DNA of 64,000 nucleotides from Planctomycetota bacterium (GTDB taxonomy: Bacteria > Planctomycetota > UBA1135 > UBA2386): contig JACKIC010000011.1 of the NCBI GenBank assembly GCA_020638655.1, forward strand, positions 40,890-104,889. Direction: 5' to 3'. Made by a program: the position numbers and the translations under genes. This document shows positions 18,179 through 48,409 of the stretch, piece after piece; the stretch's first letter is position 1; each line of letters begins with the position of its first letter. The notes beneath the pieces were generated by a model. It was given only the letters and a program-made list of their open reading frames with translations. It had not been told where the DNA came from and searched no databases.

Positions 18179-18345
18179 GGCCCGACGCCTCCCGTTTCCC
18201 GACCGATTGTGGAACCCGACGGCGCCTGCGGCGCCGAGGGGGGGCCGGATTCCCTGCTCCGTTGCTCGCCGACGGGGTTGCATTCCCGACCCGATTCTCT
18301 ATCCTCCCCACCCCTCATTTCCCGGACTGCGCAGACTAGGACAGT

Positions 18346-18720
18346 ATGCCGACCATCAACCAGCTGGTTCGCAAGGGCCGCAAGAAGATCAAGTACAAGA
18401 GCAAGTCGCCGATCCTCGACGCCTGCCCGCACAAGCGCGGCGTGTGTCTGCAGGTGAAGACGATGACGCCGAAGAAGCCGAACTCGGCTCTGCGCAAGAT
18501 CGCGCGCGTGCGCCTCAGCAACGGCAAGGAGACCACGGTCTACATTCCTGGTGAGGGTCACAACCTGCAGGAACACTCGATCGTGCTGATCCGCGGCGGC
18601 CGCGTGCGCGACCTCCCCGGTGTGCGCTACCACGTGCTGCGCGGTTGCCTGGACGCCTCGGGCGTCGAGAGCCGTCGCCGCAGCCGCAGCAAGTACGGCG
18701 CGAAGCGCCCCAAGAAGTAG
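18346..18720 (+). CDS. rpsL: 30S ribosomal protein S12
   Basis: '[12 protein letters not shown]', '[11 protein letters not shown]' and '[14 protein letters not shown]' are present. Confidence 0.96.
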
Positions 18721-18798
18721 TTCGCCCGAAGCAGTCGTTCGTCGCCAGTCCTGTCGCAGTCCCACCGTCCGAACTGAATCCACCCGCCGAAGCCTCCG

Positions 18799-19272
18799 AT
18801 GCCTCGCTCCTACAAGTCCACCGAAGTCCACCTGAAGGGCGACCCCCGCTACAACAACAAGCTGGCCAGCAAGATCGTCAACAAGATCATGCTGCAGGGG
18901 AAGAAGACGACCGCGCAGCGGCTCTTCTACGAGGCCATCGACACGGTCGTCGGCAAGATCGAGAACGGCGACGCCGTCGAGGTCTTCACGAAGGCCATCG
19001 AGAACATCAAGCCGCGCGTCGAAGTGCGCAGCAAGCGCGTCGGTGGCGCGACCTACCAGGTCCCGCGCGAAGTCAACAAGCGCCGCCAGCAGAGCCTCGC
19101 GATCCGTTGGCTCGTGGACGCTGCCCGCGCCAAGCGCGGCAAGCCGATGGCCCGCTCGCTCGCCGAGGAGCTGTTCGACGCCTTCAACAACCAGGGCGCC
19201 GCGGTCACCAAGAAGGAGAACGTGCACAAGATGGCCGAGGCGAACAGCGCCTACAGCCACTTTGCCTGGTAG
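18799..19272 (+). CDS. rpsG: 30S ribosomal protein S7
   Basis: 'DPRYNNKLASKIVNKIMLQGKKTTAQ', 'VEVRSKRVGGATYQVP' and the C-terminal 'AYSHFAW' are present. Confidence 0.96.
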   Translation: MPRSYKSTEVHLKGDPRYNNKLASKIVNKIMLQGKKTTAQRLFYEAIDTVVGKIENGDAVEVFTKAIENIKPRVEVRSKRVGGATYQVPREVNKRRQQSLAIRWLVDAARAKRGKPMARSLAEELFDAFNNQGAAVTKKENVHKMAEANSAYSHFAW

Positions 19273-19407: not shown

Positions 19408-19545
19408 GGGCGGGGCCCTGCGGGAACGCTTGGCGAAGGGGAATAGAGGGGGCCGCTCGGTGGTCCGAGGCCGCGCGAAAGTACGCGCCCGCGACGTTTT
19501 CGGTCGCTGCGCCCGCCTCAACCCTGGTCTAGACTCGGCCCACCG

Positions 19546-28332: not shown

Positions 28333-28350
28333 GCGCTCGCTCGCCCGAGA

Positions 28351-28402
28351 GACCGCCCGGCCATTCCCCGGGCCGGCGGTCGCCAACCGCTCTTTTCCTC
28401 TC
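28351..28402 (+). terminator. imperfect GC hairpin plus T-rich tract after gene A
   Basis: 'gaccgcccggccattccccgggccggcggtc' forms an interrupted stem and is followed by 'gccaaccgctcttttcctct'. Confidence 0.4.
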
Positions 28403-28558
28403 CCCTCCCCTGTCTCGGCTGGTCGTGCCCATGGCGTGGCCGGTTCCCCTGGACCCGACAATCTCCCCCTCAGAGGTCGTGCCCAGGGGGTAGACTCCTG
28501 CCGGCCCGCGCCCTCGCGGGTCTGCATCCAGATCTCGAGCCCTGATCCCCAGAGTGTT

Positions 28559-28579
28559 TGGCGGAAGTCACTTCCGCCA
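28559..28579. promoter_or_regulatory. perfect 10-1-10 palindrome upstream of gene B
   Basis: TGGCGGAAGT-c-ACTTCCGCCA lies 34 nt upstream of the B start codon. A second small hairpin, gccct-agcg-agggc, lies at 28588-28601. Confidence 0.4.
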
Positions 28580-28612
28580 GGCAAGACGCCCTAGCGAGGG
28601 CGCATTCGCACC

Positions 28613-32074: not shown

Positions 32075-32269
32075 TCCGATCCGCGGCCTCAAACGCCGTT
32101 GCCAGCGAACGCTCGGCAGCGGCTGACGATGCCGCTCTCCAACTACCGATACCGGTCGTAACCGCCCTTTCGAGCGCGTCGCGACCTCTGACCCAAGCAC
32201 GAGATTCCCACACCACGACTGCTGCCGACGACCACGCGTCGCCGACACGATGACCTGGGGCACACTGAC

Positions 32270-35200
32270 ATGAAGCAACCCACGTTCCGATCCCGTCAGT
32301 TCGGTAGCCGCGCGCTCCCATTCGCGCTGGCGCTGGTGGCGGCCACTGCCTGTGGCGGGCCCAAGAGTGTCGGCTCACTCAGCCAGGACGCCGATCGTCC
32401 GACGCTGCTGAGCGTCCAACTGGGTCGCCTGGTCGACGTCTATTCCTACCAGCGCATCGACCCGACCAACGGCGACCGTCGCGATCGCTTCAATCGCCGC
32501 CTGACGTTGGTCGCCGAGAACCTGGTCATCAACCCCAACATCGAGTCGCAGTCGTTGTTCGACGCGGCCGGTGAGGAGCTGCCGGGCGCGAACTTCGAGT
32601 TCCGCACCTTCAGCAAGTCGGTCGGCCACGAGGAGCTCGTGATCCTGTGGGACGATCGCGCCGGGCCCGAGGCCGAGCGTTACCAGGCGGCGCTGCAGAT
32701 CGCCCAGGCGGGGCTGACCGAGCTGGCCCCGTCCTACCGCAACCAGAACACGCAGACGCGCCCGATCCCGATCGTGCCGCGCAACGCCGCGATCAAGCTG
32801 AACTTCAGCAGCCCGGTCAAGGCCGACGAGGCCTTCTTCGGGGTCAACCCGTCGGCGATCCAGCTGCTCGAGTTCAAGGGTGACCCGGCGGTCGTCGATC
32901 CGGTCAACGCGTTCCGCATCCTGCCCTATCGCCCGATCCCGCAGGGCTCGACGATCGTGCTGGACACCACCATCCTCGGTGGCGAAGGCGCCAACGGCCT
33001 GACCGTCGCCGGTCTGCCGGCGTCGTCCGACAACGTCACCGCGAACATCCGCGTGGCGATCCCCGTGCGCGGCGCGGTCGCGCCGTCGTTCTACGTCCGC
33101 GAGGACGCCGTCGCCGAGCTCAACGGCGTCGACAGCGCCGGGCGCAACTCGGTGATCCGCGACTTCCGTTCGGGCAACCTCAACGACGGCGTCGCCGGCC
33201 GCCTGCGCGAGTCCGAGCCGCCGATGATCGTCGGCAGCTTGCCGATGGGCATCACCGAGATCGACACGGTCAACAACGTCATCACGATCAACAAGCGCCT
33301 GCACTTCGTGCCGGTGCGCGGCCGCTTCCCGTTCGTCGACGGCCCGCTCGAGCAGAGTGGCATCCCCGCCGGTCCGTTCTCGGTGCCGATCTCGCGGCCG
33401 CTGCGCACGGGCGACATCCTGACGCAGACGCTGCAGGTGCAGATGCCGGACGGCTCGATCGAGTCGGTCGAGCTGCGCGCCGAGATCCTGCACAACCTCG
33501 AGGTCGGCACCGTCATCGGTGACCAGAACCTGCCGCGCCTCGGCCGGGTCGAGAACGGTCAGGGCGGTTCGGATCAGGGTGAGCGCCTGTCGGTCGTGCG
33601 CGTTCGCGTCGCCTCGCTCGAGGCCGGTCGCGACTCCCTCGGTCGCATGCACTCGTTCGAAGCCAGCAGCCTGCCCAACGGCCGCGACTGCGTGCTGCGG
33701 GCCCGCTACTACGACGAAGTCGCCTACGTCGGCAGCACGACCGAGTTCGTCAGCGATCGCGATTGGCGCCACGAGTTCGTGCGCATCGACCCGACCCCGT
33801 CGGGCGCGGTGCAGCCCGCCACGCAGGTGTCGCCGAATGCTTCGATCGCGGTCGAGTTCACCAAGCCGCTGGACCTCGATCAGGTCGACAACACCGACAA
33901 CTTCCTGGTCACCAACACCTCGATCCTGACCGAGTCCTTCGCGGTCCAGATGGGCGACGCCAAGCGCGCGACCGCGCGCATCGTGCCGACCCGCCTGACC
34001 GACCTGGCCGGTGACGGCACCGTGCTGCGTCTGCAGCCGCCGATGGGCTTCTTCCACAACACGGGCACGCCCGAGACCTACGCGGTGCACGTGCGCCTGG
34101 GTGGGGCCGGTGTGCTCGACCTCGCCGGCAACGCCGTGGACATCTTCGGCGACCTCGCCAATCCGTCGGACAGCTGGTCGGTCGACTTCTCGCTCGATGC
34201 GCAGGCCCTGACCAACCGGGTCGGCTGGCACACCTATACGATGACGAGCGAGGACGAAGACGGCTCGCTGCCGGGCTCGGTCGACATGTTCGGCCAGTAC
34301 CGTCTGCAGGACGGCCGCCTGTTCGCCGCCGCCGGTGTGCGCTTCAGCCGCACCGCCGACAACCAGAACCTGGCGACGATCAGCCGCATCCACCGCGGCG
34401 AGTGCTGGGATCCGGACTTCGATCCGACCGTCGGCAGCCCGCAGGGCGTGCCCGCGGCGCCCCTGGACGGCGCCGGTCTGCCGCACCCCGGTCTGCTCTA
34501 CTGGCAGCCGCGCATGTTCGATCAGATCGCGCCGCCGAACGTGCCGTCGGTCTACGAGTACTACCAGCAGCTGCCGCAGAACGTCGGCCGCGTGGTCGAG
34601 CCGCATCACCCCAACGGCTCGCGCCTGCAGATGCGCTACCTCGAGGACGACTTCTCGCTGAGCTACCGCCAGCCGTCGGAGTTCGGTCTCGACGTCGAGC
34701 AGATGTACTGGTCGCCCTTCAACGACGAGACCGTCTACTACGACGTGTTCGATCGCTACACGATGTCGCTCGCGCACACCGCGCGTCGCGCCGACGTGCG
34801 CTTCACGCTGATCCCCGGCGACTCGAGCGCGATGCCGCCGGTGCCGCCGGGCTGCCTGTTCAACTGCCCGAGCATGAACAGCGGCCTGTCGAGCGTGTTC
34901 GCTGACAACGTCCTGCCGGGCACCCAGGAGGTGCCGGTGTTCGAGGACAAGGTCTACAGCATCAACCCGAACCAGGCCTTCCGCTCGCCGCTGAACGTCA
35001 AGTACGTGCCCTACCCGCGCTTCGACCGCTCCTACACCTGGCGCGACTCGCGCCTGGTCACGGTCGACAACGCCGGCAACGTGATCGGCCTCGGCGGCGC
35101 CGAGCAGCCCGGTGCGCCGCAGCCCAACAACGACACCACGGCGAACATCGATTCGCCCTGGATCGCCAGCGTGCCGGATCCCGACTTCGTCAACGTCGGC

Positions 35201-36220
35201 GGTTCGGTGTGGGTCCAGGACCCGGCCGACTTCGTCGGCGACGCGATGCACGACCACGACCCGATCGCCCTGCCGCTGCTGGTCGACTTCAAGGTCTTCC
35301 CGGACAGCGCCGCCAACGGCATCGCCGCGGGCGTCAACAACTTCCAGGTCGCCATGATGGGCCCGCCCAGCTACGGCTTCCCGGGCATCCCCGGCGGCTA
35401 CTACGACCGCCAGGGTGCGGGTTGCGGCGGCACGCCGCCGTGGCCGCGCTCGCGCGTCCAGGCGACCGGTGGTGAGGACATCATCTCGGGCGCGACGATC
35501 CTGATCGACCCGGCCAATCAGCTGATGGCCCAGTCGAGCACGCTCAAGGACGCCGGCCTCGGCAACGCCACGCGTGCCCTGTTCAGCGCCCCTCCGGGTG
35601 ACGGCATGGTGCACTGGGCGCAGGCCGACTTCGTGCGCAAGGTCTCGACCGTGACGATCGGCTTCTTCGACTCGCTGCAGCCGCAGCGCGCGCAGCTGGT
35701 CACGTTCGACGGCTCGGGCACGGCCTCGATCAACGCGACCAACGGCTTCCCGGATCTGCTGACGCTCGATCCGACCCTGCGCATCCGCGACCTCGTCGTG
35801 CAGCTCGACCCGCCGCAGAGCCGGCAGCCGGCTGGCACCTCGGTGGTCGTCGAGATCCGCGGCGCCGAGGACTTCGACAACTCGGGCAATCTCTACAACC
35901 CGAGCTTCGACCAGGCGTCCCAGACCCCGGACGACACGTTCGACGGTCGCGGCAACCTGCTCAACGTCAACTACGCCTGCGAGGCCTACCGCTACTCGCA
36001 GTCGAACCAGCCGGGCAACATCCCGCGCATCAACGCCACGCAGCTGACCCGCTACGTGACCGAGGACCAGCTGGCGCTGATCCGCAGCCCGGCCACGGGC
36101 CTGCTGCCGCGCTTCCTGAACCTGCGCCTGGTGATGACCAACAATGTCGACGTGTCGCCGGCGCTGTCGCCGTCGCTGCGCAGCATGAGCGTGGTCTACA
36201 AGCTCGAGCCGGGGCAGTAA
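32270..36220 (+). CDS. giant predicted lipoprotein C (family 1), paralogue of A
   Basis: 1316 aa with lipobox 'LVAATAC'. Blocks shared with A include 'VPRNAAIKLNFS', 'AGLPASSDNVTANIRVA', 'IRDFRSGNLND', 'LDVEQMYWSP' and 'VLDLAGNAVD'. Confidence 0.85.
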   Translation: MKQPTFRSRQFGSRALPFALALVAATACGGPKSVGSLSQDADRPTLLSVQLGRLVDVYSYQRIDPTNGDRRDRFNRRLTLVAENLVINPNIESQSLFDAAGEELPGANFEFRTFSKSVGHEELVILWDDRAGPEAERYQAALQIAQAGLTELAPSYRNQNTQTRPIPIVPRNAAIKLNFSSPVKADEAFFGVNPSAIQLLEFKGDPAVVDPVNAFRILPYRPIPQGSTIVLDTTILGGEGANGLTVAGLPASSDNVTANIRVAIPVRGAVAPSFYVREDAVAELNGVDSAGRNSVIRDFRSGNLNDGVAGRLRESEPPMIVGSLPMGITEIDTVNNVITINKRLHFVPVRGRFPFVDGPLEQSGIPAGPFSVPISRPLRTGDILTQTLQVQMPDGSIESVELRAEILHNLEVGTVIGDQNLPRLGRVENGQGGSDQGERLSVVRVRVASLEAGRDSLGRMHSFEASSLPNGRDCVLRARYYDEVAYVGSTTEFVSDRDWRHEFVRIDPTPSGAVQPATQVSPNASIAVEFTKPLDLDQVDNTDNFLVTNTSILTESFAVQMGDAKRATARIVPTRLTDLAGDGTVLRLQPPMGFFHNTGTPETYAVHVRLGGAGVLDLAGNAVDIFGDLANPSDSWSVDFSLDAQALTNRVGWHTYTMTSEDEDGSLPGSVDMFGQYRLQDGRLFAAAGVRFSRTADNQNLATISRIHRGECWDPDFDPTVGSPQGVPAAPLDGAGLPHPGLLYWQPRMFDQIAPPNVPSVYEYYQQLPQNVGRVVEPHHPNGSRLQMRYLEDDFSLSYRQPSEFGLDVEQMYWSPFNDETVYYDVFDRYTMSLAHTARRADVRFTLIPGDSSAMPPVPPGCLFNCPSMNSGLSSVFADNVLPGTQEVPVFEDKVYSINPNQAFRSPLNVKYVPYPRFDRSYTWRDSRLVTVDNAGNVIGLGGAEQPGAPQPNNDTTANIDSPWIASVPDPDFVNVGGSVWVQDPADFVGDAMHDHDPIALPLLVDFKVFPDSAANGIAAGVNNFQVAMMGPPSYGFPGIPGGYYDRQGAGCGGTPPWPRSRVQATGGEDIISGATILIDPANQLMAQSSTLKDAGLGNATRALFSAPPGDGMVHWAQADFVRKVSTVTIGFFDSLQPQRAQLVTFDGSGTASINATNGFPDLLTLDPTLRIRDLVVQLDPPQSRQPAGTSVVVEIRGAEDFDNSGNLYNPSFDQASQTPDDTFDGRGNLLNVNYACEAYRYSQSNQPGNIPRINATQLTRYVTEDQLALIRSPATGLLPRFLNLRLVMTNNVDVSPALSPSLRSMSVVYKLEPGQ

Positions 36221-36267
36221 TGCCCGCAGCTGCGGTCCCCGGTGGGCCGCAGCACAACGGATCTGCG

Positions 36268-36308
36268 CGCGGCCGACTGCCTTGGGGCAGTCGGCCGCGT
36301 TCGTTTCC
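36268..36308 (+). terminator. strong intrinsic terminator after gene C
   Basis: Perfect 14-bp stem cgcggccgactgcc/ggcagtcggccgcg with loop ttgg, followed by ttcgtttcc. Confidence 0.8.
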
Positions 36309-36384
36309 AGGGCGTGTTCGCGAATGCGGAGCACTGTCGCTGCCGTGGCGTTAGCGTGTGCCCGGTTCGCCGTCGTCGTCTACG

Positions 36385-38250
36385 ATGGGCCCGCTGCAGT
36401 CCATGTCCTGTCCCCGTGCCATCCCCGCGCTGCTCGTGCCCCTGGGCCTCGCCCTCGCCGCGGGGTGCCACCGGTCGGCGCCCCCGGCCTTCGAGGTGAT
36501 GCACACCTCGCCCGTGCTGGGCGGTGAAGCCGGGCCGCTGCTGCTCAACGACACCATCACGGTCTACTTCTCGGCGCCCGTGTCGGCGCTCAGCGTGACG
36601 TCGGACTCGGTGCACGTCGTCGACGCGCGCGGCAACCAGGTGCCGGGCCAGCTGCGGGTGGGTGAGAACTGGGTGACCTTCGCGCCGCGACCGCCGCTCA
36701 CGGCGGGCCTCGTGGACGGTTCGTTCCAGCCGGGGGAAGCCTACGAACTGCGCCTGGCGGGGTATCCCCGTCCCGACGCGATCCGCGCGGTCGATGGCAG
36801 GCGGCTGTCGATCGGCCACGTGCTGCCGTTCCGGGCGGCGGACGTCGACCATCGCGAGGGGGGGCTGCCGGCACCGCTGCGACCGCTGGCCTCGGACCTG
36901 CCGCTGGTGCTGCGCGCCGCCGAGGCGCCGCAGGCGCTGCCCGTCGATGCCGCGGTCCTGCGTCTGCACTTCTCGTCGCCGCTGCTGCCGACCTCGGTGA
37001 CCCCGTCGGCGTTGGTGATCCAATCGCTGCGCGACATGGCCACCCTGACTCCGCGGCGGGTCAGGGCGGTGACCTCTGCGGTCGACCTCAACCCGGGCAG
37101 CAGCGTCGAGGTCGAACTCGGCGCGACCCCGGCCCGCGAGGATGGTGGATTCCTCGCGCTGCAGCCCGGTGACCTGATCAGCGTGTCGCTGCGCATGGAC
37201 GCGGATGGCCTGCGGGACTACCAGGGCAACACCGTGTTGCCGGCGCCGCCGCAGTTCTGGACGGTCGTGCCCGGGGCGACCGTGGCGCTGCTCGAACTCC
37301 CTGGCGCGGCGGAGTCGTTCGTCGACGAGGGCAGCCTCGAGCCGGGCTTCGAGGTGCGCGGCGGCGTGGTGCGGCCGCGCGTGCGCGTCGAGGCGGGCGA
37401 CGGCAGCCTGGGCGCGTTCCGACCGCAGCAGGACACCGTGCTGCGGCCCGGGGAACCATTCGACCGCGGTGACGGCGTCCAGGTCGCGAGTCGCGACGGA
37501 CGGTTCCCGTTCCGCCTCATCGAGGTACCCAGGGGCGTCACGGTGACGCTCGATTGTCGGGGCGGGCCGGTGCAGCTGACCGCTCTGGGCTCGGTGTCGA
37601 TCCTGGGCGAACTGGCGCTGCGTGGCGCGGCCGTGCCGCTCGCCGAACGGCAGCTCGCCCCCGTTCCCGCGGCCAGCCTGTTCGACCTCGGCGCGCCGCT
37701 GCTGCTCGCCGCCGGCGACGTGCACCTGTCGGGCCGCGTCGTCAGCGACGCCCCGGCCGAAGGCGACGCCACGCCGTTCGTGGTCGCCGCCGCCGGGCAC
37801 GTGCACCTGGGCGGCGAACTGCCGTTCCGCACGGTCCTGGCGGTGGAAGCGGCCCACGCGGGCGGCTCCGGGCCGGCGGTGCACGGTCCGCGCGGCCAGA
37901 CCCTGCTGCGCTCGGTCGAGTTCACCTACGGCCTGGCGCCGGGCGCCACCTGCGAGGCGCGCGGGTTCAGCGCCTGGCAGCAGCTGCCGGAAGGGCGCAT
38001 CGGCGGCGTCGTGCAGGTGCGCGACGCCGACGCCGAGCTGCGACTGGCGTGGCAGTCGACGCCGCCCGACGCGATCGTCACCGACGCGCCGGACCTGACG
38101 CCCGGGCGCACGGGCCGTCTGCAGACGTTGTTCGACGGGGAGCCCGTCACGATCGCCGAGCGCGCGTTCGTGCGCTTCGCCTTCGAGGCGAGCCTGCGCC
38201 ACGACCGTCGGCTGCCGTCGTTGCGCATGCTGCGCCTCGTCGCTCGCTGA
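36385..38250 (+). CDS. predicted lipoprotein D (shorter family-2 relative)
   Basis: ATG at 36385; alternative starts are GTG 36358 and ATG 36403. Lipobox 'LALAAGC'. 'NDTITVYFSAPVSALSVTSDSVHVVD' and 'FRLIEVPRGVTVTLD..ILGELALRG' align with B and E. Confidence 0.75.
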   Translation: MGPLQSMSCPRAIPALLVPLGLALAAGCHRSAPPAFEVMHTSPVLGGEAGPLLLNDTITVYFSAPVSALSVTSDSVHVVDARGNQVPGQLRVGENWVTFAPRPPLTAGLVDGSFQPGEAYELRLAGYPRPDAIRAVDGRRLSIGHVLPFRAADVDHREGGLPAPLRPLASDLPLVLRAAEAPQALPVDAAVLRLHFSSPLLPTSVTPSALVIQSLRDMATLTPRRVRAVTSAVDLNPGSSVEVELGATPAREDGGFLALQPGDLISVSLRMDADGLRDYQGNTVLPAPPQFWTVVPGATVALLELPGAAESFVDEGSLEPGFEVRGGVVRPRVRVEAGDGSLGAFRPQQDTVLRPGEPFDRGDGVQVASRDGRFPFRLIEVPRGVTVTLDCRGGPVQLTALGSVSILGELALRGAAVPLAERQLAPVPAASLFDLGAPLLLAAGDVHLSGRVVSDAPAEGDATPFVVAAAGHVHLGGELPFRTVLAVEAAHAGGSGPAVHGPRGQTLLRSVEFTYGLAPGATCEARGFSAWQQLPEGRIGGVVQVRDADAELRLAWQSTPPDAIVTDAPDLTPGRTGRLQTLFDGEPVTIAERAFVRFAFEASLRHDRRLPSLRMLRLVAR

Positions 38251-38477: not shown

Positions 38478-39455
38478 ATGTCGACGGTTGTTTTCGAGGT
38501 GGGGGCAGCCCTGCTCGGGGCCTGCGTAGGGTCCTTCCTCAACGTCGTCATCTACCGCCTGCCGCAGGAAGATCCCGCCAGACGATCGCTCGGCGGTCGT
38601 TCGCACTGCCCGCACTGCGGCGCGCAGATCCGCTGGTTCGACAATCTGCCCGTGCTCGGCTGGGTGCTGCTGCGCGGGCGCGGCCGCTGCTGCGGGCAGC
38701 GCATCGCGTTCCGCTATCCGCTCGTCGAACTGCTCACCGCGCTGCTGTTCCTCGCGGTGACGCTGTGGTCGCCGTGGAACCTGCCGATCACGATCGACGA
38801 CCTCGGCGGCCTGCACGTCGACACTGCGCGGGCGGTCGGCTACGGCCTGCACCTGCTGTTCGTCTCGGTGCTGGTCGCGTGCACGTTCATCGACTTCGAC
38901 AAGCAGATCCTGCCCGACGCGATGACCAAGCCGGGCATGGCGATCGGCGTGCTCGCCGGCATCTACCCGGGCATCGCCGGGCCGATCTCGCGCGATGCGT
39001 CGACGCCCTACGCGCTGCGCACGCTGCTCGCGAGCGTCGTCGGCCTGGCGGTCGGCGCCGGGGTCACGTGGGGCATCCGCTGGCTCGGCTCGCGCGTCTT
39101 CGGCAAGGAGGCGATGGGGCTCGGCGACGTCAAGTTCCTCGGCATGATCGGCGCGTTCCTCGGCTGGCAGGGCGCGCTGCTCACCCTGTTCCTGGGCTGC
39201 GTGGTCGGCGCCGTGGTCGGCGGTCTCGCGGCGCTGCGCGGCGGGCTGGGGCTGCGCATCCCGTTCGGTCCGTACCTCGCGCTGGGCGCGTTGATCGCGC
39301 TGTTCGCGCAGGACCACGTCTACGTCTTCTTGTTCGACACATGGCCGGAGTGGCAGCGGCGCAACCCGTCGTCACAGTTCCTGCTGCTCGGCATGGCCGT
39401 GTTGTCGTTGTTCGCGTTGTTCGTGCTCGTGCGCCGTGGGCGCCGCGCAGGATGA
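38478..39455 (+). CDS. pilD: prepilin peptidase (A24 family)
   Basis: 'GSFLNVVIYRLP', 'CPHCGAQIRWFDNLPVLGW', 'GRCCGQRI', 'FIDFD' and 'GLGDVKFLGMIGAFLGW' are present. Confidence 0.9.
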   Translation: MSTVVFEVGAALLGACVGSFLNVVIYRLPQEDPARRSLGGRSHCPHCGAQIRWFDNLPVLGWVLLRGRGRCCGQRIAFRYPLVELLTALLFLAVTLWSPWNLPITIDDLGGLHVDTARAVGYGLHLLFVSVLVACTFIDFDKQILPDAMTKPGMAIGVLAGIYPGIAGPISRDASTPYALRTLLASVVGLAVGAGVTWGIRWLGSRVFGKEAMGLGDVKFLGMIGAFLGWQGALLTLFLGCVVGAVVGGLAALRGGLGLRIPFGPYLALGALIALFAQDHVYVFLFDTWPEWQRRNPSSQFLLLGMAVLSLFALFVLVRRGRRAG

Positions 39456-39499: not shown

Positions 39500-40144
39500 A
39501 TGATGTTCCGCAAGACACTCCTTCTCTTCGCCGCCGCAGCGATGACGCTGTTGCCGAGCTGCACGGCCCGTTACCAGGACATGCTTCGCGATCGCGATTC
39601 GCGCATCCGCGACCTCAACGGCGAGGTCGCGCGCCTGCGCGGCGAGAACGACGACCTGCAGCGCCGGCTCGCCTCGGCGGCGACCGTCACGCCGACGCCC
39701 GCCGCGGCCAAGCGCGACGACAGCGAGGTCAGCGACATCCAGCGCGACGTCGGTCCCGACGCCTACGTCGATCGCCGTCGCGGCCGCATCAGCATCGGCG
39801 TGCAGGACAAGGTGACCTTCGACTCGGGCAGCAAGACCCTCAAGGACTCGTCGCACTCCGTGCTACGCAACGTCGCGAACGTGCTCAAGGACAAGTTCGC
39901 GGGGCGGCGCTTCTTCATCGAAGGCCACACCGACACCGATCCGATCGTCAAGACCAAGGGGCTCTACCGCAACAACCGGCACCTGTCGTTCGAGCGCGCC
40001 GACTCCGTGGCGGCGTGGCTGATCAAGCAGGGTGTGCCGGAGTCCTCGATCGTGGTCGTCGCCTACGGCCAGTTCGATCCTCGCGACCCGAAGAACAAGG
40101 AAGCCAACCGCCGCGTCGAGATCGTCGTCGGCGACAGCCTCTGA
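39500..40144 (+). CDS. OmpA/MotB-domain lipoprotein with N-terminal coiled coil
   Basis: RBS GGAGG (39491-39495). Lipobox 'LLPSC', coiled coil 'IRDLNGEVARLRGENDDLQRRL', and OmpA C-like 'FFIEGHTDTDPI...NRHLSFERADSVAAWL...NRRVEIVV'. Confidence 0.8.
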   Translation: MMFRKTLLLFAAAAMTLLPSCTARYQDMLRDRDSRIRDLNGEVARLRGENDDLQRRLASAATVTPTPAAAKRDDSEVSDIQRDVGPDAYVDRRRGRISIGVQDKVTFDSGSKTLKDSSHSVLRNVANVLKDKFAGRRFFIEGHTDTDPIVKTKGLYRNNRHLSFERADSVAAWLIKQGVPESSIVVVAYGQFDPRDPKNKEANRRVEIVVGDSL

Positions 40145-40388: not shown

Positions 40389-42422
40389 ATGGCCCATACA
40401 TCGGAGCAAGTCCGCAACGTCGCCCTGGTCGGGCACGGACATGCGGGCAAGACCGCCCTCCTCGACGCGATCGCGTTCCACCTCAAGCTCAGCTCGCGTC
40501 TTGGCAGCACCGCCGACGGCACCAGCCTGAGCGACATCGACGCCGAGGAGAAGGAGCGACGACAGACCCTGTCGGCGCACCTGTTCCAGCTGCCGATCGG
40601 CGACACGGTCTGCAACGTGTTCGACACGCCTGGGCACCCCGACTTCCTCGGTGAGGTGCTCGCGGCGATGGACGCGGTGGAGACCGCGCTGTTCGTCGTC
40701 AACGCCGCCAACCCGGTGACGTTCCATCTGCGCCACCTGTGGAAGCGCGCGGGTGACCTCGGCATCGGCCGCGCGATCGCGATCACGCACCTCGACCAGG
40801 ACAACACCGACTTCGAGGCGGTGGTCGAGGAGCTGCGCACGGCCTTCGGCCACGCGGTCGTGCCGGCGTCGTACCCCAACGCGACCGGGGCCGCCTTCAA
40901 GTCGGTTCACGACGTGACGCACCGCGAAGGCCCCAAGGCCGAGCAGTACCACGACATGATCGAGGAGGACGAGGCCGAGGTCGACGACACCTTGATGGAG
41001 CACTACCTCGAGACCGGCCACCTCGACGAGCACGAGTTCGAGGAGAACCTGCGCCGCGCGGTGGCGCGCGGCAACCTGGTCCCGGTGTTCGCGGTCTGCC
41101 CCAACCGCGGGCTCGGCCTCGAGCAGCTGCTCGAGTTCATCTCGCACCACTTCCCGTCACCCGTGTGCTTCGGCGCGCGCCCCGCCGGCGAGCCCGGCTC
41201 GGGCGCCTACGGGCAGCTCGTCGAGCCCGACGACGGGCCGTTCGTGGCCAAGGTGTGCCGCGTCGTGTCCGACCCGTACGTCGGGCGCCTGTCGGTGCTG
41301 CGTTGCCTGCGCGGCAAGCTGAGCAAGGACCAGAACGTCGTCGACGTGCGCACCGGGCAGAGCCACAAGGTCGCGCACCTCTACGCCGTGCACGGCAAGG
41401 ACACCAAGGAGATCGGCGAGGTCGTCGCCGGCGACCTGTTCGCGGTCGGCAAGATCGAGGACTTCCTGCTCGGCGACACGCTCACCGACGGCACCAGGCT
41501 CGAACTGCCGCGCGTCGCCTTCCCGGTGCCGACCTACTCGCGGCACATCTGGCCGAAGGCGCGCGGCGACGAGCAGAAGATCGGCCACGCGGTCGAGAAG
41601 ATCGGCATCGAGGACCCGACGTTCCTGCACGATCGCGACAAGGAGACCGGCGAGTTCCTGGTCACGGGCATGAGCCCGCTGCACCTCGACGTGCACTTCC
41701 AGCGGCTCAACCGTAAACACCACGTCGCGGTGGAGCACGGTCCGCCCACGATTCCCTACCGCGAGACGATCACGGCGCGCGCCGACGGCCATCACCGGCA
41801 CAAGAAGCAGAGCGGTGGCCGCGGCCAGTTCGCCGAGGTCTATCTGCGCGTGGCGCCCAAGCAGCACGGCGAAGGCTTCGAGTTCGTCGACTCGGTCGTC
41901 GGCGGCTCGATCCCGCGGCAGTTCATCCCCGAGGTCGAGAAGGGCGTGCGCAAGTTCCTGACCCGCGGCTCGCTGGCCGGCTTCCCCGTCGTCGACGTGC
42001 AGGCCGAGGTCTACGACGGCAAGTACCACGACGTCGACAGCGACCAGATCAGCTTCCAGCTGGCAGGCGAGCGGGCGTTCCTCGACGGCTTCTCCAAGGC
42101 GCGCCCGATCCTGCTCGAGCCGGTCATGGACGTCGAGATCCACGTGCCCGAGCGCTTCACGGGCGACGTCGCCGGCAACCTGTCCGGCGCGCGCGGCCGG
42201 CTGGCCGGCATGGAGGTGCACGAGGGCGTGCAGATGATCAAGGCGCACGTGCCGCTGGCATCGATGTTGGAATACTCGACACAGCTGCGCTCGATCACGG
42301 CCGGCGAGGGCACCTACACGATGCAGTTCGCGCACTACGAGCCGGTGCCACCGCACCTTCAGGCCGAGATCGTCAAGAACCGCAAGGCGGTCGTGGACCA
42401 GCACCACGGCGAGCACCGCTAG
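40389..42422 (+). CDS. elongation factor G family paralogue with non-canonical G1 and G4 motifs
   Basis: 677 aa. G1 is 'GHGHAGKT' and G3 is 'DTPGHPDF'. The domain IV tip 'GKYHDVDSD' is conserved. 'ITHLDQ' stands where NKxD is expected. Confidence 0.8.
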   Translation: MAHTSEQVRNVALVGHGHAGKTALLDAIAFHLKLSSRLGSTADGTSLSDIDAEEKERRQTLSAHLFQLPIGDTVCNVFDTPGHPDFLGEVLAAMDAVETALFVVNAANPVTFHLRHLWKRAGDLGIGRAIAITHLDQDNTDFEAVVEELRTAFGHAVVPASYPNATGAAFKSVHDVTHREGPKAEQYHDMIEEDEAEVDDTLMEHYLETGHLDEHEFEENLRRAVARGNLVPVFAVCPNRGLGLEQLLEFISHHFPSPVCFGARPAGEPGSGAYGQLVEPDDGPFVAKVCRVVSDPYVGRLSVLRCLRGKLSKDQNVVDVRTGQSHKVAHLYAVHGKDTKEIGEVVAGDLFAVGKIEDFLLGDTLTDGTRLELPRVAFPVPTYSRHIWPKARGDEQKIGHAVEKIGIEDPTFLHDRDKETGEFLVTGMSPLHLDVHFQRLNRKHHVAVEHGPPTIPYRETITARADGHHRHKKQSGGRGQFAEVYLRVAPKQHGEGFEFVDSVVGGSIPRQFIPEVEKGVRKFLTRGSLAGFPVVDVQAEVYDGKYHDVDSDQISFQLAGERAFLDGFSKARPILLEPVMDVEIHVPERFTGDVAGNLSGARGRLAGMEVHEGVQMIKAHVPLASMLEYSTQLRSITAGEGTYTMQFAHYEPVPPHLQAEIVKNRKAVVDQHHGEHR

Positions 42423-42607
42423 CCGCAGATCCCCGGGCCGGCGGCACCGCGCCGCCGGCCGCGCAAGCGCCCGTGCCGCCGGGCCGCGCCGCCCGCCGCC
42501 TCTCCGATCGAGGCGCCGCCGGGCAAGGCCTCAATGCGACAGGCCCCGTCGACCGATAGACCGCTCCGGGTCCGGATCCATCCGCACCCTCACAGGAGCG
42601 CGTCAAC

Positions 42608-43699
42608 ATGGTCTCGATGGAAGAACTGCTGAACCTCATGGTTCAGCGCGGCGGGTCCGACTTGCACATCTCGGTGGGTTCTCCTCCCAAGATTCGCATC
42701 GACGGCAAGCTCGTCGACACGGAGCACGAACCGCTGATGCCCGAGCAGACCAAGAAGTTGATCTACTCGGTGATCGGTCCCGATCAGGTCGCCAAGCTCG
42801 AGAAGCAGCTCGAAATCGACTTCTCGTTCGGCGTCGCCAACCTGGGTCGTTTCCGCACCAACGCGTTCGTGCAACGCGGCTCGATCGCCGCGGTGCTGCG
42901 CGTGATCCCGTTCGAGGTCTTCGACTTCGAGACGATCGGCCTGCCCAAGAAGGTCTGCGAGTGGATCTGCAACCTGCCGCGCGGCCTGGTGCTGTGCACC
43001 GGCGCGACCGGCTCGGGCAAGTCGACGACGCTCGCGTCGATGATCAACTACGTCAACGAGACGCGGCAGAGCCACATCATCACGATCGAGGACCCGATCG
43101 AGTTCCTGCACCGGAACAAGGGCTGCCTGATCAACCAGCGTGAGGTCGGCGGCGACACCCTGGGCTTCGACAAGGCGCTCAAGTCGGTGCTGCGTCAGGA
43201 CCCCGACGTCGTGCTGGTCGGCGAAATGCGCGACCTCGAGACGATCGAGGCGGCGCTGACGCTCGCCGAGACGGGCCACCTGACTTTCGCGACCCTGCAC
43301 ACGTCCGACGTGTGCCAGACCGTGAACCGCATCGTCGACGTCTTCCCGGCGCACCAGCAGCAGCAGATCCGCACGATGCTGTCGTTCACGCTGCAGGCCG
43401 TCGTCTGCCAGCAGCTGGTGCCGCGCATCCACGGCAAGGGCCGCGTGCTCGCCGCCGAGATCATGATCGTCACGCCCGCGATCCGGGCGCTGATCCGCGA
43501 CAACAAGGCGCACCAGATCATGTCGACGATCCAGACCGGTGGCGCGCAGGGCATGCGCACCATGAACCAGTCGCTGTTCGACCTCTACCGGGCGGGGACC
43601 ATCAGCTACGAGGACGCGATGGAGCACTGCGGTGACCACGCCGACTTCCAGCGCCTGATGGAACGTGCCGGCACCGGTGGCGCCCGCGCGACGCGGTGA
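42608..43699 (+). CDS. pilT: type IV pilus retraction ATPase PilT
   Basis: 'GGSDLHI', Walker A 'GATGSGKSTT', 'DPDVVLVGEMRD', 'TGHLTFATLHT' and the PilT signature 'AIRALIRDNKAHQI' are present. Confidence 0.9.
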   Translation: MVSMEELLNLMVQRGGSDLHISVGSPPKIRIDGKLVDTEHEPLMPEQTKKLIYSVIGPDQVAKLEKQLEIDFSFGVANLGRFRTNAFVQRGSIAAVLRVIPFEVFDFETIGLPKKVCEWICNLPRGLVLCTGATGSGKSTTLASMINYVNETRQSHIITIEDPIEFLHRNKGCLINQREVGGDTLGFDKALKSVLRQDPDVVLVGEMRDLETIEAALTLAETGHLTFATLHTSDVCQTVNRIVDVFPAHQQQQIRTMLSFTLQAVVCQQLVPRIHGKGRVLAAEIMIVTPAIRALIRDNKAHQIMSTIQTGGAQGMRTMNQSLFDLYRAGTISYEDAMEHCGDHADFQRLMERAGTGGARATR

Positions 43700-43702
43700 T
43701 CC

Positions 43703-45415
43703 ATGAGTCAATTCGCGAAGAAGCTGCGCGGCATCCTCGAGAAGGCGGGCAAGCTCGACTCCGCCACCGGGGACACTCTGCTCGCCGAGGCGCAGAGTGA
43801 GAAGCGGCCGTTCACGGAGGTGCTGGTCAAGAAGGGCGTCGCCACCGAGCACGAGCTGCTCGCGTTGATCGCCAAGGCGGCCAACGTGCCGCCGATCGAC
43901 CTGACCAAGCTGATCGTCAACAAGGAGGTGCTGGAGTCCGTGCCCGAAGACGTGGCGCGTGAGTACTGCATCTTCCCGGTCGACCGGATCGGCAACATCA
44001 TCACCGTCGCGGTCGCCAACCCGTTCGACGTGCTCAAGCTCGACGACATCCGCATCATCACGGGTTGTCAGCTGCGCACCGTCGTCAGCACCGCCGAGGA
44101 GATCGAGAAGATCCGCGGCAAGGGTTACCAGAAGGAGAGCGAGTCGGTCGACGGCATCCTCGGCTCGTTCGACGACTCCGACGTCGAGCTCAAGGAAGCC
44201 GACATCGACGACGAGAGCACCGACCTGTCGGCGATCAGCGACGAGGACTCGCCGGTCGTCAAGCTCGTCAACAAGATGATCCTGGACGCCTGCAACACCG
44301 GCGCGTCCGACATCCACATCGAGCCGTTCGAGAAGAAGGTGATCATCCGCTACCGCAAGGACGGCTGCCTCTACGAGGCGATGACGCTGCCCAAGCGCAT
44401 GCAGAACAACATCACCTCGCGCATCAAGATCATGTCCAAGCTGGACATCGCCGAGAAGCGCAGGCCGCAGGACGGCAAGTTCCAGATGAAGATCGGCCAC
44501 AAGGCGGTCGACTTCCGCGTGTCGATCCTGCCGGTGGTCTGGGGCGAGAAGACCGTCTTCCGCATCCTCGACTCCAGCAACCTCGCCCTCGACATCAAGT
44601 CGCTGGGCTTCGAGAAGCAGCCGATGGAGGACTACCTGTGGGCGTGTGCGCAGCCCTACGGCATGATCCTCGTCACCGGTCCGACGGGTTCTGGTAAGTC
44701 GACGACGCTGTACTCGGCGGTCAAGCACATCGCCGCGCCCGACATCAACCTGGTCACGGTCGAGGACCCGGTCGAATACCAGCTCGAGGGCATCAACCAG
44801 GTGCCGGTCAATCCCAAGGCCGGCCTGACGTTCGGCGGCGCGCTGCGTTCGATCCTGCGTCAGGACCCCGATGTGGTGCTGCTCGGCGAGATTCGCGACC
44901 AGGAGACCCTCGAGATCGCGGTCAAGGCCGCGCTCACGGGCCACCTGGTGCTCAGCACGCTGCACACCAACGACGCGCCGTCGACCATCACCCGCATGGT
45001 CGACATGGGTATGGACCCGTTCATGGTCGCCAGCTCGACGCTGCTGATCTGCGCGCAACGTCTCGGCCGCAAGCTGTGTCCGAACTGCAAGAAGCGCGTC
45101 GAGATCCAGAAGGACGTGCTGATCCGCCTCGGCTTCGCCGAGGAGGACTTCGCGGCCGGCCACGACATGGAGTTCTACGAGCCCGTCGGCTGCCCGCGCT
45201 GCAACCAGGGCTACAAGGGCCGCTTCGCGCTGCTCGAGACGATGCGCATGACCGAGGGCGTCAAGCGCATGGTCGTCGACCGCGCGCACATCGCCGACAT
45301 CAAGAAGCTCGCGCTGAGCGAAGGCATGTTGACGCTGCGACGCTGCGGCCTGCTGAACGCGATGCGCGGCAAGACCAGCCTGCAAGAGGTCGAGTCGTCG
45401 ACCATGGCGGACTGA
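43703..45415 (+). CDS. pilB: type IV pilus assembly ATPase PilB (GspE family)
   Basis: 570 aa. N-terminal T2SSE_N-like region, Walker A 'GPTGSGKSTT', 'TGHLVLSTLHTND' and a tetra-Cys 'CPNCKK...CPRCNQ' are present. The start lies 3 nt after the pilT stop. Confidence 0.9.
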   Translation: MSQFAKKLRGILEKAGKLDSATGDTLLAEAQSEKRPFTEVLVKKGVATEHELLALIAKAANVPPIDLTKLIVNKEVLESVPEDVAREYCIFPVDRIGNIITVAVANPFDVLKLDDIRIITGCQLRTVVSTAEEIEKIRGKGYQKESESVDGILGSFDDSDVELKEADIDDESTDLSAISDEDSPVVKLVNKMILDACNTGASDIHIEPFEKKVIIRYRKDGCLYEAMTLPKRMQNNITSRIKIMSKLDIAEKRRPQDGKFQMKIGHKAVDFRVSILPVVWGEKTVFRILDSSNLALDIKSLGFEKQPMEDYLWACAQPYGMILVTGPTGSGKSTTLYSAVKHIAAPDINLVTVEDPVEYQLEGINQVPVNPKAGLTFGGALRSILRQDPDVVLLGEIRDQETLEIAVKAALTGHLVLSTLHTNDAPSTITRMVDMGMDPFMVASSTLLICAQRLGRKLCPNCKKRVEIQKDVLIRLGFAEEDFAAGHDMEFYEPVGCPRCNQGYKGRFALLETMRMTEGVKRMVVDRAHIADIKKLALSEGMLTLRRCGLLNAMRGKTSLQEVESSTMAD

Positions 45416-45453: not shown

Positions 45454-46701
45454 ATGGCCACGAAGTTCAAGTACGAAGCGAAGGACGCCTCCGGCAAGAC
45501 CGTCAAGGGTTCGGTGGCGGCGTCGAGCCAGTCCGAAGCGGTCGCCGACTTGCGTCGTCGCAACCTGACCCCGGTGGACGTGAAGAAGGCCGGTGGCCTG
45601 TTCGGCCTCGGCGGCGGCGGCGGCGGTGGGCCGAAGGGGCGCAAGAAGGCGACCCGGTCCAGCGTGCAGAAGGGGGAGCTCGAAGTCTTCACCCGCCAGC
45701 TGTCGACGATGCTCAGCGCCGGTATCCCGATGCTCGAGGCGCTCGAGATCCTCGCCGACCAGGCCGAGTCTCCTGGCTTCGCCTTCTGCCTCGACAAGGT
45801 CGTCGAGGACATCCGCTCGGGCTCCGACCTCAGCAAGGCGATGGAGCCGCACAAGCGGGTCTTCTCGCACATCTACGTCAGCATGATCCGCGCCGGTGAG
45901 GTCTCGGGTCAGATTGACATCATCCTGCAGCGCCTCGCCGACTATCTCGAGGCGGCGGCGCACCTGCGCAGCGAGATCAAGTCGGCGATGACCTACCCGG
46001 TCATCTCGCTGTTCTTGGTCATCGGCATCGCGTCGTTCCTGATGATCGGCATCGTGCCGTCGTTCAAGCCCGTGTTCGACTCGCTCGAGGTCGAACTGCC
46101 GGGTCTGACCGTGTTCATCATGGACATCGCGTTCTTCATGCGCGACTACTGGTACCTGATCTTCGGCGGCATGTTCGGCGCGTTCGTCGGCATCAAGGCG
46201 CTGTGCAAGACGCCCAAGGGCGCCTACGCCAAGGACGCGCTGATGCTGCGCGTGCCGGTGTTCGGCGTGCTGTTCAAGAAGGTCGCCCTGTCGCGCTTCG
46301 CGCGCACGTTCTCGACGCTGGTCAAGAGCGGCGTGCCGATCCTCGGCGCGATGGAGATCGTCTCCGACACGGCGGGCAACCTGGTGATCTCCGGCATCGT
46401 CGACCGCGCGCGCGACAGCGTGCGCAACGGTGAGAGCCTGTCCGACCCGTTCATGAAGTCGACGGTGTTCCCGCCGATGGTCACCAAGATGATGGCGATC
46501 GGTGAACGTTCCGGCGCGCTCGACGCGCTGCTCGAGAAGATCGCCGAGTTCTACGACCAGCAGGTCGAGGCCGAGGTCAAGGGACTCACGTCGATGATCG
46601 AGCCGATCATGATCGCGATCATGGGTGTGATCGTGGGCGGCATCGTGCTCGCGGTGTTCCTGCCGATCTTCAAGCTGCAGGAGAAGCTCTCGGGCGGCTG
46701 A
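45454..46701 (+). CDS. pilC: type IV pilus platform protein PilC (GspF family)
   Basis: 415 aa. Duplicated GspF modules ('FTRQLSTMLSAGIPMLEAL', 'FARTFSTLVKSGVPILGAM') and 3 TM segments are present. Confidence 0.9.
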   Translation: MATKFKYEAKDASGKTVKGSVAASSQSEAVADLRRRNLTPVDVKKAGGLFGLGGGGGGGPKGRKKATRSSVQKGELEVFTRQLSTMLSAGIPMLEALEILADQAESPGFAFCLDKVVEDIRSGSDLSKAMEPHKRVFSHIYVSMIRAGEVSGQIDIILQRLADYLEAAAHLRSEIKSAMTYPVISLFLVIGIASFLMIGIVPSFKPVFDSLEVELPGLTVFIMDIAFFMRDYWYLIFGGMFGAFVGIKALCKTPKGAYAKDALMLRVPVFGVLFKKVALSRFARTFSTLVKSGVPILGAMEIVSDTAGNLVISGIVDRARDSVRNGESLSDPFMKSTVFPPMVTKMMAIGERSGALDALLEKIAEFYDQQVEAEVKGLTSMIEPIMIAIMGVIVGGIVLAVFLPIFKLQEKLSGG

Positions 46702-47722: not shown

Positions 47723-48409
47723 ATGTCCAAGCGGGAACAGGGCTTCACACTCATCGAGCTGATGATCGTCGTGGCGATCATCGCCATCATCGCGTCGATC
47801 GCGATTCCGAACCTCCTCAGCGCGCGCCTCAACGCCAATGAATCGGCCGCGATCGCCACGCTGAAGAACATCTCGTCGGGCCAGTCGCAGTGCCAGGCCT
47901 CGGGCGTCATCGACGTCAACGGCAACGGCTCGGGCGAGTACGGCTTCTTCGGCGAGCTGTCGGGCCGCACCGCGGTCCGCAACAGCACGCAGCGCATCAG
48001 CCCGGCGGTGCTCTCGAGCGCCTTCGGCAACGTCGCCGCGGCCCGCGTCTCGCGCTCGGGCTACCTCTTCCAGATGTTCCTGCCGGACGCCACGGCCCAG
48101 GGTATCGAGGAAGATGCGACCGGTGGTGACCCGGACAACGGCCAGGGTGTCGACCCGGGCCAGGCCGAGACGCTGTGGTGCTGCTACGCCTGGCCGCAGG
48201 TCCAGGGCAACAGCGGCAAGCGCACGTTCTTCGTGAACCAGGCCGGTGACGTGCTCGCCACCAACGGTGCGGTCGTCGCCTACAACGGCACCACCACGCC
48301 GGTGACCTTCGACGTCGCGTTCGCCGCGACGAGCTCGGCCGCGATGGGTGTGCCCGTCGCCGCCAACACGCTCGGCCAGGACGGCAACACCTGGGTCGTC
48401 GTGCAGTGA
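47723..48409 (+). CDS. pilA: type IV pilin / pseudopilin
   Basis: Class III signal 'MSKREQG|FTLIELMIVVAIIAIIASIAIPNLL' with Glu at +5. 228 aa. RBS GGGAG. Confidence 0.9.
   Translation: MSKREQGFTLIELMIVVAIIAIIASIAIPNLLSARLNANESAAIATLKNISSGQSQCQASGVIDVNGNGSGEYGFFGELSGRTAVRNSTQRISPAVLSSAFGNVAAARVSRSGYLFQMFLPDATAQGIEEDATGGDPDNGQGVDPGQAETLWCCYAWPQVQGNSGKRTFFVNQAGDVLATNGAVVAYNGTTTPVTFDVAFAATSSAAMGVPVAANTLGQDGNTWVVVQ

Follow-up and report, generated by a model that had tools for sequence, protein, structure and literature searches.

An EFG II-type elongation factor G paralogue seated in a conserved type IV pilus gene block of Planctomycetota

Introduction

Among the duplicates of elongation factor G (EF-G) found in bacteria, paralogues of the EFG II type are the most frequent, and their role is debated, with GTPase-free slow translocation being proposed for Bacteroides and a stress factor for mycobacteria. 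EFG II proteins are defined by a Gly that replaces Ala as the first residue of the P-loop and by a nearly invariant Leu as its last one (Gly16 and Leu25 of the Thermus thermophilus EF-G2 structure 1WDT), as well as by the loss of the RGITI consensus, in which the Thr or Ser of position 4 is nonetheless kept, and by the co-occurrence of another EF-G (PMC3150367). Here, we describe P0001, an EF-G paralogue encoded among type IV pilus (pil) genes in a 64,000-nt stretch of a Planctomycetota genome (assembly GCA_020638655.1, contig JACKIC010000011.1, positions 40,890 to 104,889), referred to below as the window.

Another form of EF-G paralogy is known from the same phylum. Spirochaetes, Planctomycetes and Deltaproteobacteria have a split EF-G pair, spdEFG1/spdEFG2 (Atkinson and Baldauf, 2011; PMC4342817), and Atkinson's table reports EFGII beside spdEFG1/2 in Isosphaera pallida, and none in Pirellula, Planctomyces or Rhodopirellula. 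As for catalysis, the H88Y substitution almost abolishes the GTPase activity of Mycobacterium smegmatis EF-G1, and M. smegmatis EF-G2, which has a Tyr at this position of switch II, is devoid of ribosome-dependent GTPase activity (bioRxiv 10.64898/2026.05.25.727771). With regard to nucleotide recognition, the accepted G4 motif is N/TKxD, i.e., with Thr allowed as first residue, according to a survey covering 298 guanine-nucleotide complexes, in which 43% of the complexes have no NKxD at all and the dominant guanine contact is a hydrogen-bond pair to Asp or Glu, with Asp as the principal residue that determines guanine recognition (PMC11594714).

Domain architecture, nucleotide-binding motifs and fold

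The P0001 gene is an uninterrupted open reading frame (ORF) of 677 codons, from ATG to TAG (40389-42422, plus strand), with a GGAG located 8 nt 5' of the ATG; both the GGAG and the ATG are kept in orthologous loci. The Pfam domains GTP_EFTU, EF-G_D2, EFG_III, EFG_IV and EFG_C each score over the gathering cut-off, and P0001 displays the five-domain architecture of the EF-G/EF2 family, namely a G domain with its G' insert followed by domains II, III, IV and V. This layout had been recognized in an earlier inspection of the letters and translations of the window (hereafter the sequence-only reading), and the motif strings quoted there are all present in the translation: GHGHAGKT at residues 15-22, DTPGHPDF at 79-86, THLD at 133-136 and GKYHDVDSD around 547-551. 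An AlphaFold2 model of P0001 reaches a predicted local distance difference score (pLDDT) of 93.3 and a predicted template modelling score (pTM) of 0.88, with TM-scores of 0.84-0.92 against structures of EF-G and EF-G2, the majority of which are ribosome-bound.

In an HMMER alignment of P0001 with T. thermophilus EF-G, residues 6-179 pair without a single gap, which places GHGHAGKT opposite AHIDAGKT, RRQTL opposite RGITI, DTPGH opposite DTPGH and THLD opposite NKMD. A G4 box misaligned by eye is ruled out by this gapless alignment and by the alignments to EF-G2 structures, and the realignment that the sequence-only reading had named as a possible refutation leaves THLD under NKMD. The deviations in G1 and G4 that it had pointed out are thus genuine as alignments go, but GHGHAGKT is still a sound Walker A/P-loop (GxxxxGKT), and a Thr in first position belongs to the accepted N/TKxD alternatives (PMC11594714). 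Overall, P0001 has the G1 (GxxxxGK[ST]), the Thr of G2, and the DxxG and catalytic His of G3 that are expected of the EF-G/EF2 family, in the form of GHGHAGKT, RRQTL and DTPGH, while it departs from the [NT]KxD of EF-G family G4 boxes: its Thr and Asp fit, and the Lys is replaced by His. Since the guanine-specifying Asp is kept, guanine binding is expected to persist and guanine specificity to be retained in P0001; the G4 His would take over the stacking and cation-pi role of the Lys side chain.

Family assignment

Several lines of comparison support P0001 as an EFG II-type paralogue, as judged from its signature residues and from the closest structures of its G domain. All four EFG II features are found: the P-loop GHGHAGKTAL provides the initial Gly and the terminal Leu, RRQTL corresponds to a relaxed RGITI that retains its Thr, and both a canonical fusA and a third EF-G paralogue are present in the genome (see below). 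When the G domain alone was searched against the PDB, the top three matches were the EF-G2 proteins of M. smegmatis (9K0Z, 2e-38), Bacteroides thetaiotaomicron (7UVP, 1.6e-34) and T. thermophilus (1WDT, 8e-30), with canonical EF-Gs following at about 1e-23. In a phylogenetic tree, P0001 falls among GhxxxGKTxL/DTPGY proteins, apart from EFG I. As for the NCBIfam models, P0001 scores 631.8 bits with the 'elongation factor G' equivalog NF009891 (PRK13351.1-1; cut-off 597), for which the fusA product of the same genome reaches just 490.9 bits, and it is over the cut-off of the generic EF-G subfamily NF009381; with the canonical EF-G model TIGR00484 (cut-off 659.4), in turn, it scores only 515 bits, versus 939.6 for fusA.

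The studied EF-G2 proteins (T. thermophilus 1WDT, M. smegmatis 9K0Z/9K10, B. thetaiotaomicron 7UVP/8DMF) share with P0001 the five-domain fold, the Gly-first and Leu-last P-loop, the relaxed RGITI with a conserved Thr or Ser, a Thr as first residue of G4, a Cys in G5, a conserved domain IV and a second EF-G in the genome. They differ from it by a Lys or a Gln where P0001 has the G4 His, and by a Tyr or a Ser in switch II where P0001 has the catalytic His; P0001 also stands out by a His at position 4 of the P-loop and by the location of its gene inside a type IV pilus block. Because TKLD or NQLD in G4, VCS or VCG in G5 and the lack of the P-loop Asp are all found in EF-G2 structures, the replacement of Lys by His in G4 appears, on these alignments, to be the sole change of the pocket that is peculiar relative to EFG II.

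Canonical EF-G (EFG I, FusA; T. thermophilus 1DAR/4V5F) shares with P0001 the domain architecture, the DTPGH switch II and the GGRGQF and HxVDS loops of domain IV, at 30-34% identity and with TM-scores of up to 0.92 for the ribosome-bound form. In contrast, AHxDxGKT, RGITI, NKxD and GSA are all altered in P0001, about 22 residues are missing from the G' region, and the gene lies outside the str operon and does not encode the sole EF-G of the cell. The spdEFG pair illustrates EF-G paralogy in the same phylum, but the G motifs of P0001 are of the EFG II type instead, and the three-residue KDG insertion in switch I that is the hallmark of spdEFG1 is absent from P0001, whose residues 6-179 are collinear with T. 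thermophilus EF-G.

Conservation within the clade and across Planctomycetota

The variant residues of P0001 are shared by its relatives. Among the 121 nearest database homologues, which are 55-96% identical to P0001 and, where named, annotated as Planctomycetota EF-G, the G4 box carries His in 120/120, Thr in 119/120 and Asp in 119/120, and takes the form TH(L/P/V)D. The G3 His (118/119) and the G2 Thr (119/119) are equally well kept, whereas other positions are more permissive: the P-loop has His at position 4 in 93/118 and Leu at its end in 99/119 (Val, Ile or Phe in the remainder), and G5 has Pro in 115/121 and Cys in 96/121. With a His fixed in all 120 sequences, the pattern of substitution indicates that THxD is conserved, not degenerate. 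The sequence-only reading had described the motif as degenerate, and this wording does not survive, given that the clade shares TH(L/P/V)D as a fixed motif, which lies one substitution away from the TKLD of EF-G2 and keeps the guanine-specifying Asp. Decay of the motif in a pseudogene is likewise ruled out by the intact ORF and the fixed variant residues. In an exhaustive profile search of 1.84 billion representatives, the THxD type accounts for only 3-4 clusters at 50% identity, and the next relatives drop to 45% identity or less.

The most tightly constrained parts of P0001 are the tip loops of domain IV, which EF-G puts into the decoding centre. Columns Q474, G476, G477, G479, H547, V549, D550 and S551 are invariant or nearly so in a 91-sequence alignment, and the loops are kept in all 52 Planctomycetota loci that were sampled. 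This holds despite a marked variety of G4 in the wider family: distant relatives and the best matches in 49 other Planctomycetota genomes have the EFG II P-loop, and their G4 box has N, T or S in first position, K, R, H or Q in second and Asp in fourth (the pairs NK, TK, TR, SK, SR, NR, TH and QK were seen in L042-L090), with domain IV loops that are invariant in these 49 orthologues.

Switch II sets the P0001 clade apart. The catalytic His has disappeared from nearly all of the more distant relatives, and it is missing from 49/49 sampled Planctomycetota orthologues outside family f1, where it is mostly replaced by Tyr (DTPGY), and otherwise by Ala, Leu, Phe or Thr. A FastTree phylogeny (LG+G, rooted on EFG I) groups P0001 and all 52 sampled Planctomycetota orthologues in a single clade (support 0.95). 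This clade contains, several well-supported nodes deep and among DTPGY sisters, the THxD/DTPGH clade (support 1.0), whose nearest sisters, from genomes of the same order, combine Tyr with THLD (G071) or with TKxD (G191 and G138). This nesting among Tyr-bearing sisters suggests that the Lys-to-His change in G4 came first and was followed by a Tyr-to-His reversion in switch II, which requires a single base (TAC to CAC), an order of events that depends on a fast tree and on its rooting. A covariation between the P-loop His of position 4 and the G4 His was considered and dropped, as this P-loop His is also found in sequences whose G4 has Lys or Arg. A distant orthologue (L055, G002:C156) has independently paired a GHGH P-loop with a THAD G4, with a Tyr in switch II; the two His residues near the base-binding pocket may have arisen there a second time.

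Linkage to type IV pilus genes

The gene context proposed in the sequence-only reading, i.e., PilD, PilT, PilB, PilC and a pilin, was borne out by Pfam; a tetratricopeptide repeat (TPR) protein is also found among the pil neighbours, and an OmpA-family gene, which had been overlooked, lies at 39500-40144. To determine how far this arrangement extends, homologues of the window neighbours were placed by tblastn in the 16-20 kb that surround the orthologue in each of 52 Planctomycetota genomes, representing about 33 families. At least one pil neighbour is found in 35 of the 52 loci. In 28 loci, which represent 21 families, the pilT gene lies immediately 3' in the same orientation, and it is followed in most of them by pilB and pilC; on the other side, pilD is present 5' of the EF-G paralogue in 21 loci, and an OmpA-like gene directly 5' of it in 24 (tblastn), including those of two named metagenome-assembled genomes that have the full block (JAEUHR010000058 and JBASWX010000485). 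The recurring order is pilD, OmpA-like lipoprotein, EFG II, pilT, pilB, pilC, and in 7 loci the pilD side alone is left. No pil neighbour was seen in a control set of 78 EF-G-family loci of other phyla, which were mostly those of canonical EF-Gs. The linkage is thus genuine and old within the phylum, and only the EFG II paralogue shows it; no published description of a link between EFG II and pilus genes was found in the literature.

The two partners nevertheless separate. In 17 of the 52 loci the linkage is broken, with a PilB orthologue located elsewhere in the genome (e.g., G077, G184, G167, G058 and G129). The three complete genomes of family f42 (G135, G171 and G188) have kept the EF-G paralogue and show no PilB match at E <= 1e-100, and families f49 and f35 have kept it without a cluster-type PilB. 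Conversely, a PilB orthologue is present in families f15 and f51, which have no EFG II at E <= 1e-100, an absence that agrees with Atkinson's table (EFGII in Isosphaera; not in Pirellula, Planctomyces or Rhodopirellula). Since PilB paralogues are ubiquitous, a PilB match at E <= 1e-100 in 198/201 genomes is uninformative by itself, and the bimodal distribution of E-values and the few clear absences were used instead. When the EF-G paralogue is considered as a candidate type IV pilus component, it is therefore adjacent to core pil genes, but its presence or absence is not tied to theirs (f42; f15 and f51). One locus (L053, G191:C27) has an otherwise intact pilD, EFG II, pilT, pilB and pilC block, in which PilB is only 24% identical to that of the window and is either divergent or replaced.

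A proposed role and its alternatives

The explanation that we favour, with a probability of about 0.55, is that P0001 is an intact EFG II-type EF-G paralogue, a ribosome-binding GTPase that would work alongside the main translocase of the cell, not in its place, and that would be expressed with pilus and envelope genes. Its sequence features, family placement, fold, conservation and synteny are those described above, and nucleotide binding, GTPase activity, ribosome binding and co-expression are its predicted parts. The nucleotide pocket, with T-x-x-D in G4 and a Cys-type G5, would be an EFG II pocket and not a decayed EF-G pocket, and P0001 would still bind GTP and GDP, perhaps with a changed affinity or exchange rate. 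Ribosome-stimulated GTP hydrolysis is predicted for its family-level clade, because this clade has the switch II His that the other sampled Planctomycetota orthologues and the studied EF-G2 proteins lack. The tip loops of domain IV are nearly invariant, and the confident model can be superposed on EF-G in its ribosome-bound form; both features indicate that P0001 may enter the ribosomal A site as EF-G does. Expression together with pilus and envelope genes would then make it an alternative translocase that serves the cell in its pilus-producing physiological state; co-expression with pili is the most likely meaning of the linkage, and P0001 being a part of the pilus machine a less likely one. 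Broken linkages, the independence of the partners, the conserved spacer blocks described below and the constraint on domain IV all argue for an action of P0001 on the ribosome and against a structural role in the pilus machine.

Several observations weigh against this explanation. To our knowledge, no GTPase with a His at the second position of G4 has been characterised, and the nucleotide preference of P0001 is a prediction. The EFG II grouping itself is not uniformly backed: P0001 scores 550.6 bits with the NCBIfam EF-G2 equivalog NF009377, under its cut-off of 890, Thermus EF-G1 scores slightly above 1WDT when full-length sequences are compared, and the tree was built without any named EFG II reference sequence. 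T. thermophilus EF-G2 reportedly hydrolyses GTP despite a Tyr in switch II, so that the His or Tyr state does not simply map onto activity. Finally, the P0001 gene may not be co-transcribed with pilT, separate promoters being suspected because promoter-like blocks are conserved in both the 244-nt upstream and the 185-nt downstream spacers.

These same blocks, on either side of the gene, also fit a linkage that is inherited gene order without function: in an early planctomycete, an EFG II gene would have entered the pil cluster and been passed on there ever since, and its product would serve as a general stress-type EF-G, like the EF-G2 of mycobacteria or Bacteroides. Such an origin would account for the 17 loci in which the linkage is gone and both genes persist elsewhere, as well as for the phyletic independence of EFG II and PilB in both directions, and it would agree with the studied EF-G2 proteins, which act in stress or starvation and have no pilus connection. 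However, it is unusual for an exact order and strand to be held across phylum-level divergence, and the adjacency survives with either flank alone; we consider this explanation rather unlikely, though it has to be taken seriously.

A further possibility is that the EF-G paralogue and the type IV pilus work together, with the paralogue acting either as a translation factor dedicated to the supply of pilins or envelope proteins or as a GTPase that regulates PilB or PilT; their adjacency would then stem from a direct dependence of function. In its favour, 21 families keep the same-strand order although protein identity is just 37-47%; in 7 loci only pilD accompanies the gene, and in others it is found with pilTBC minus a detected pilD, i.e., it is not merely trapped between them. 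In addition, none of the 78 control loci has pil neighbours. Against it stand the families in which one partner occurs without the other (f42 without a PilB match, f49 and f35 without a cluster-type PilB, f15 and f51 with PilB and without EFG II), the strongest conservation being in the ribosome-contacting loops of domain IV, and the lack of any pilus-specific domain or insertion in P0001 (Pfam), and a partnership of this kind appears improbable. The suggestion in the sequence-only reading of a specialised EF-G2-type factor co-opted next to pilT and pilB is accordingly supported as to the EFG II type, and the linkage is conserved, but a co-option for pili would go beyond this, since each partner also occurs alone. 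A variant that combines this partnership with the history of switch II, in which an EF-G-derived GTPase was recruited in Planctomycetota as a dedicated factor of the pilus/envelope block, e.g., driving or gating the translation of pilins and envelope proteins, and has, in the present family, regained the catalytic His and the GTPase activity given up by its EFG II ancestors, is improbable.

Two further identities can be set aside more quickly. LepA, BipA, RF3 and Tet-like proteins are ruled out by NCBIfam scores and domain content, and a Tet(M)-like ribosomal protection protein, in particular, is very improbable: a weak family-level similarity exists (NCBIfam tet_protect, NF012153, 231.6 bits), but it is far under the cut-off of 775, EF-G models score 2-3 times higher, all Tet models are below their cut-offs, and domain IV carries EF-G-type loops. 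The proposal of the sequence-only reading that P0001 might be an unusual primary EF-G of its lineage, prompted by the fusA slot that is indeed empty after rpsG in the window, has next to no chance of being right, as the whole-genome search that it had recommended uncovered a canonical fusA far over the TIGR00484 cut-off (939 bits versus 659) and with all canonical motifs, P0001 is itself under that cut-off, and the one family f1 genome that was also searched with P0123 (see below), G044, has further EF-G-family matches besides its P0001 orthologue.

The interest of this paralogue is twofold. The phylum-wide, strand-conserved seat in a pilus block provides a contextual clue to when EFG II is used. 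In addition, the THxD clade amounts to a natural experiment, in which close relatives differ at switch II (His versus Tyr) and at the Lys position of G4, and the comparison of these relatives would reveal to what extent a translational GTPase can let its nucleotide pocket drift and return.

Other EF-G genes of the genome

The whole assembly (5.18 Mb in 12 contigs, 83% complete, with an estimated contamination of 0.61%) was searched with TIGR00484 and contains three EF-G-family genes, among which that of P0001 scores 505 bits. The canonical fusA is located on contig C6 (G000:C6:348523-350571; L001:1426-3567, plus strand) and encodes AHIDAGKT, RGITI, DTPGH, NKMD and GSAF. It is solitary, distant from both rpsL-rpsG and the S10 operon, with a 6-pyruvoyl-tetrahydropterin synthase gene downstream.

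The third paralogue, P0123 (662 aa; G000:C12:281395-283380; L003:1471-3459, minus strand; L171:9393-11381, minus strand), has the canonical AHIDAGKT, DTPGH and NKLD and a degenerate domain IV. Its gene is immediately 5' of the rpsJ/S10 ribosomal-protein operon, and the same arrangement is found in 15 of the 29 further Planctomycetota loci that were retrieved. P0123 is a candidate spdEFG2-type recycling factor, and a better spdEFG2 candidate than P0001. A gene for a 379-aa PilT-like T2SSE ATPase (L003:3524-4663, minus strand, G000:C12) lies 64 nt 5' of it; a second meaningful pairing of EF-G and PilT was rejected here, this arrangement being seen only in this genome and in one genome of the same family, while the conserved neighbour is S10, and it is probably coincidental.

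Locus organization and flanking regions

The features of the locus are collected in Table 1; the G+C content of the window is about 65-74%. An alignment of the 5' spacer from five loci of the same family type reveals invariant columns around GGATATAAC and GTCCC, and the pre-pilT spacer contains blocks that are likewise conserved among same-family loci. A consensus sigma-70 scan detected no promoter-like site in the spacer 5' of the P0001 gene, and neither a scan for terminator-like sites nor Rfam revealed a terminator or an RNA element flanking the gene.

Table 1. Position of the P0001 gene, its sequence motifs and its neighbours in the window
Feature	Coordinates	Strand	Evidence and remarks
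rpsL-rpsG (rpsG 18778-19272)	18340..19272	+	Pfam S12 and S7; fusA slot downstream empty
Prepilin peptidase PilD	38478..39455	+	Pfam A24_N_bact 6.7e-32, Peptidase_A24 1.9e-19
OmpA-family lipoprotein gene, 214 aa	39500..40144	+	Pfam OmpA 1.8e-18; lipobox LLPSC, GGGAGG ribosome-binding site; between pilD and the P0001 gene
Conserved block TGATATAAC in the 244-nt spacer 5' of the P0001 gene	40270..40278	+	Possibly the gene's own promoter
EFG II-type EF-G paralogue P0001, 677 aa	40389..42422	+	Pfam, NCBIfam, alignments, AlphaFold2 model
G1/P-loop GHGHAGKTAL	40431..40460	+	Gly first and Leu last are EFG II signatures; His for canonical Asp
G2/switch I RRQTL	40557..40571	+	Relaxed RGITI; Mg-binding Thr retained
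G3/switch II DTPGH, catalytic His83 (codon CAC)	40623..40637	+	
G4 THLD for N/TKxD	40785..40796	+	Aligned to NKMD and to TKLD/NQLD of EF-G2 structures
G5 VCP for GSA	41094..41102	+	Aligned to VCS (M. smegmatis EF-G2) and VCG (B. thetaiotaomicron EF-G2)
Domain IV tip loops GGRGQF and HDVDS	41814..42041	+	Elements that extend to the decoding centre in EF-G
Conserved blocks CTCAAT, CCGATA and CACAGGAGCG (ribosome-binding site) in the 185-nt pre-pilT spacer	42530..42600	+	Possibly the pilT promoter
PilT retraction ATPase	42608..43699	+	Pfam T2SSE 5.7e-45
PilB extension ATPase	43703..45415	+	Pfam T2SSE 1.1e-135 and MshEN
PilC platform protein	45454..46701	+	Pfam T2SSF 4.4e-69
Type IV pilin	47723..48409	+	Pfam N_methyl 8.2e-10

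Downstream of rpsG, the place of fusA is taken by an ORF without a Pfam match (19447-20790, plus strand; up to 447 codons, with coding-like GC3), followed by a type III pantothenate kinase gene (Pan_kinase). On the 5' side of pilD, giant lipoprotein genes (24388-38250 of the window) keep their collinearity with the pil/EFG II block in 5/5 examined loci of the same family type (L039-L041 and L091-L092).

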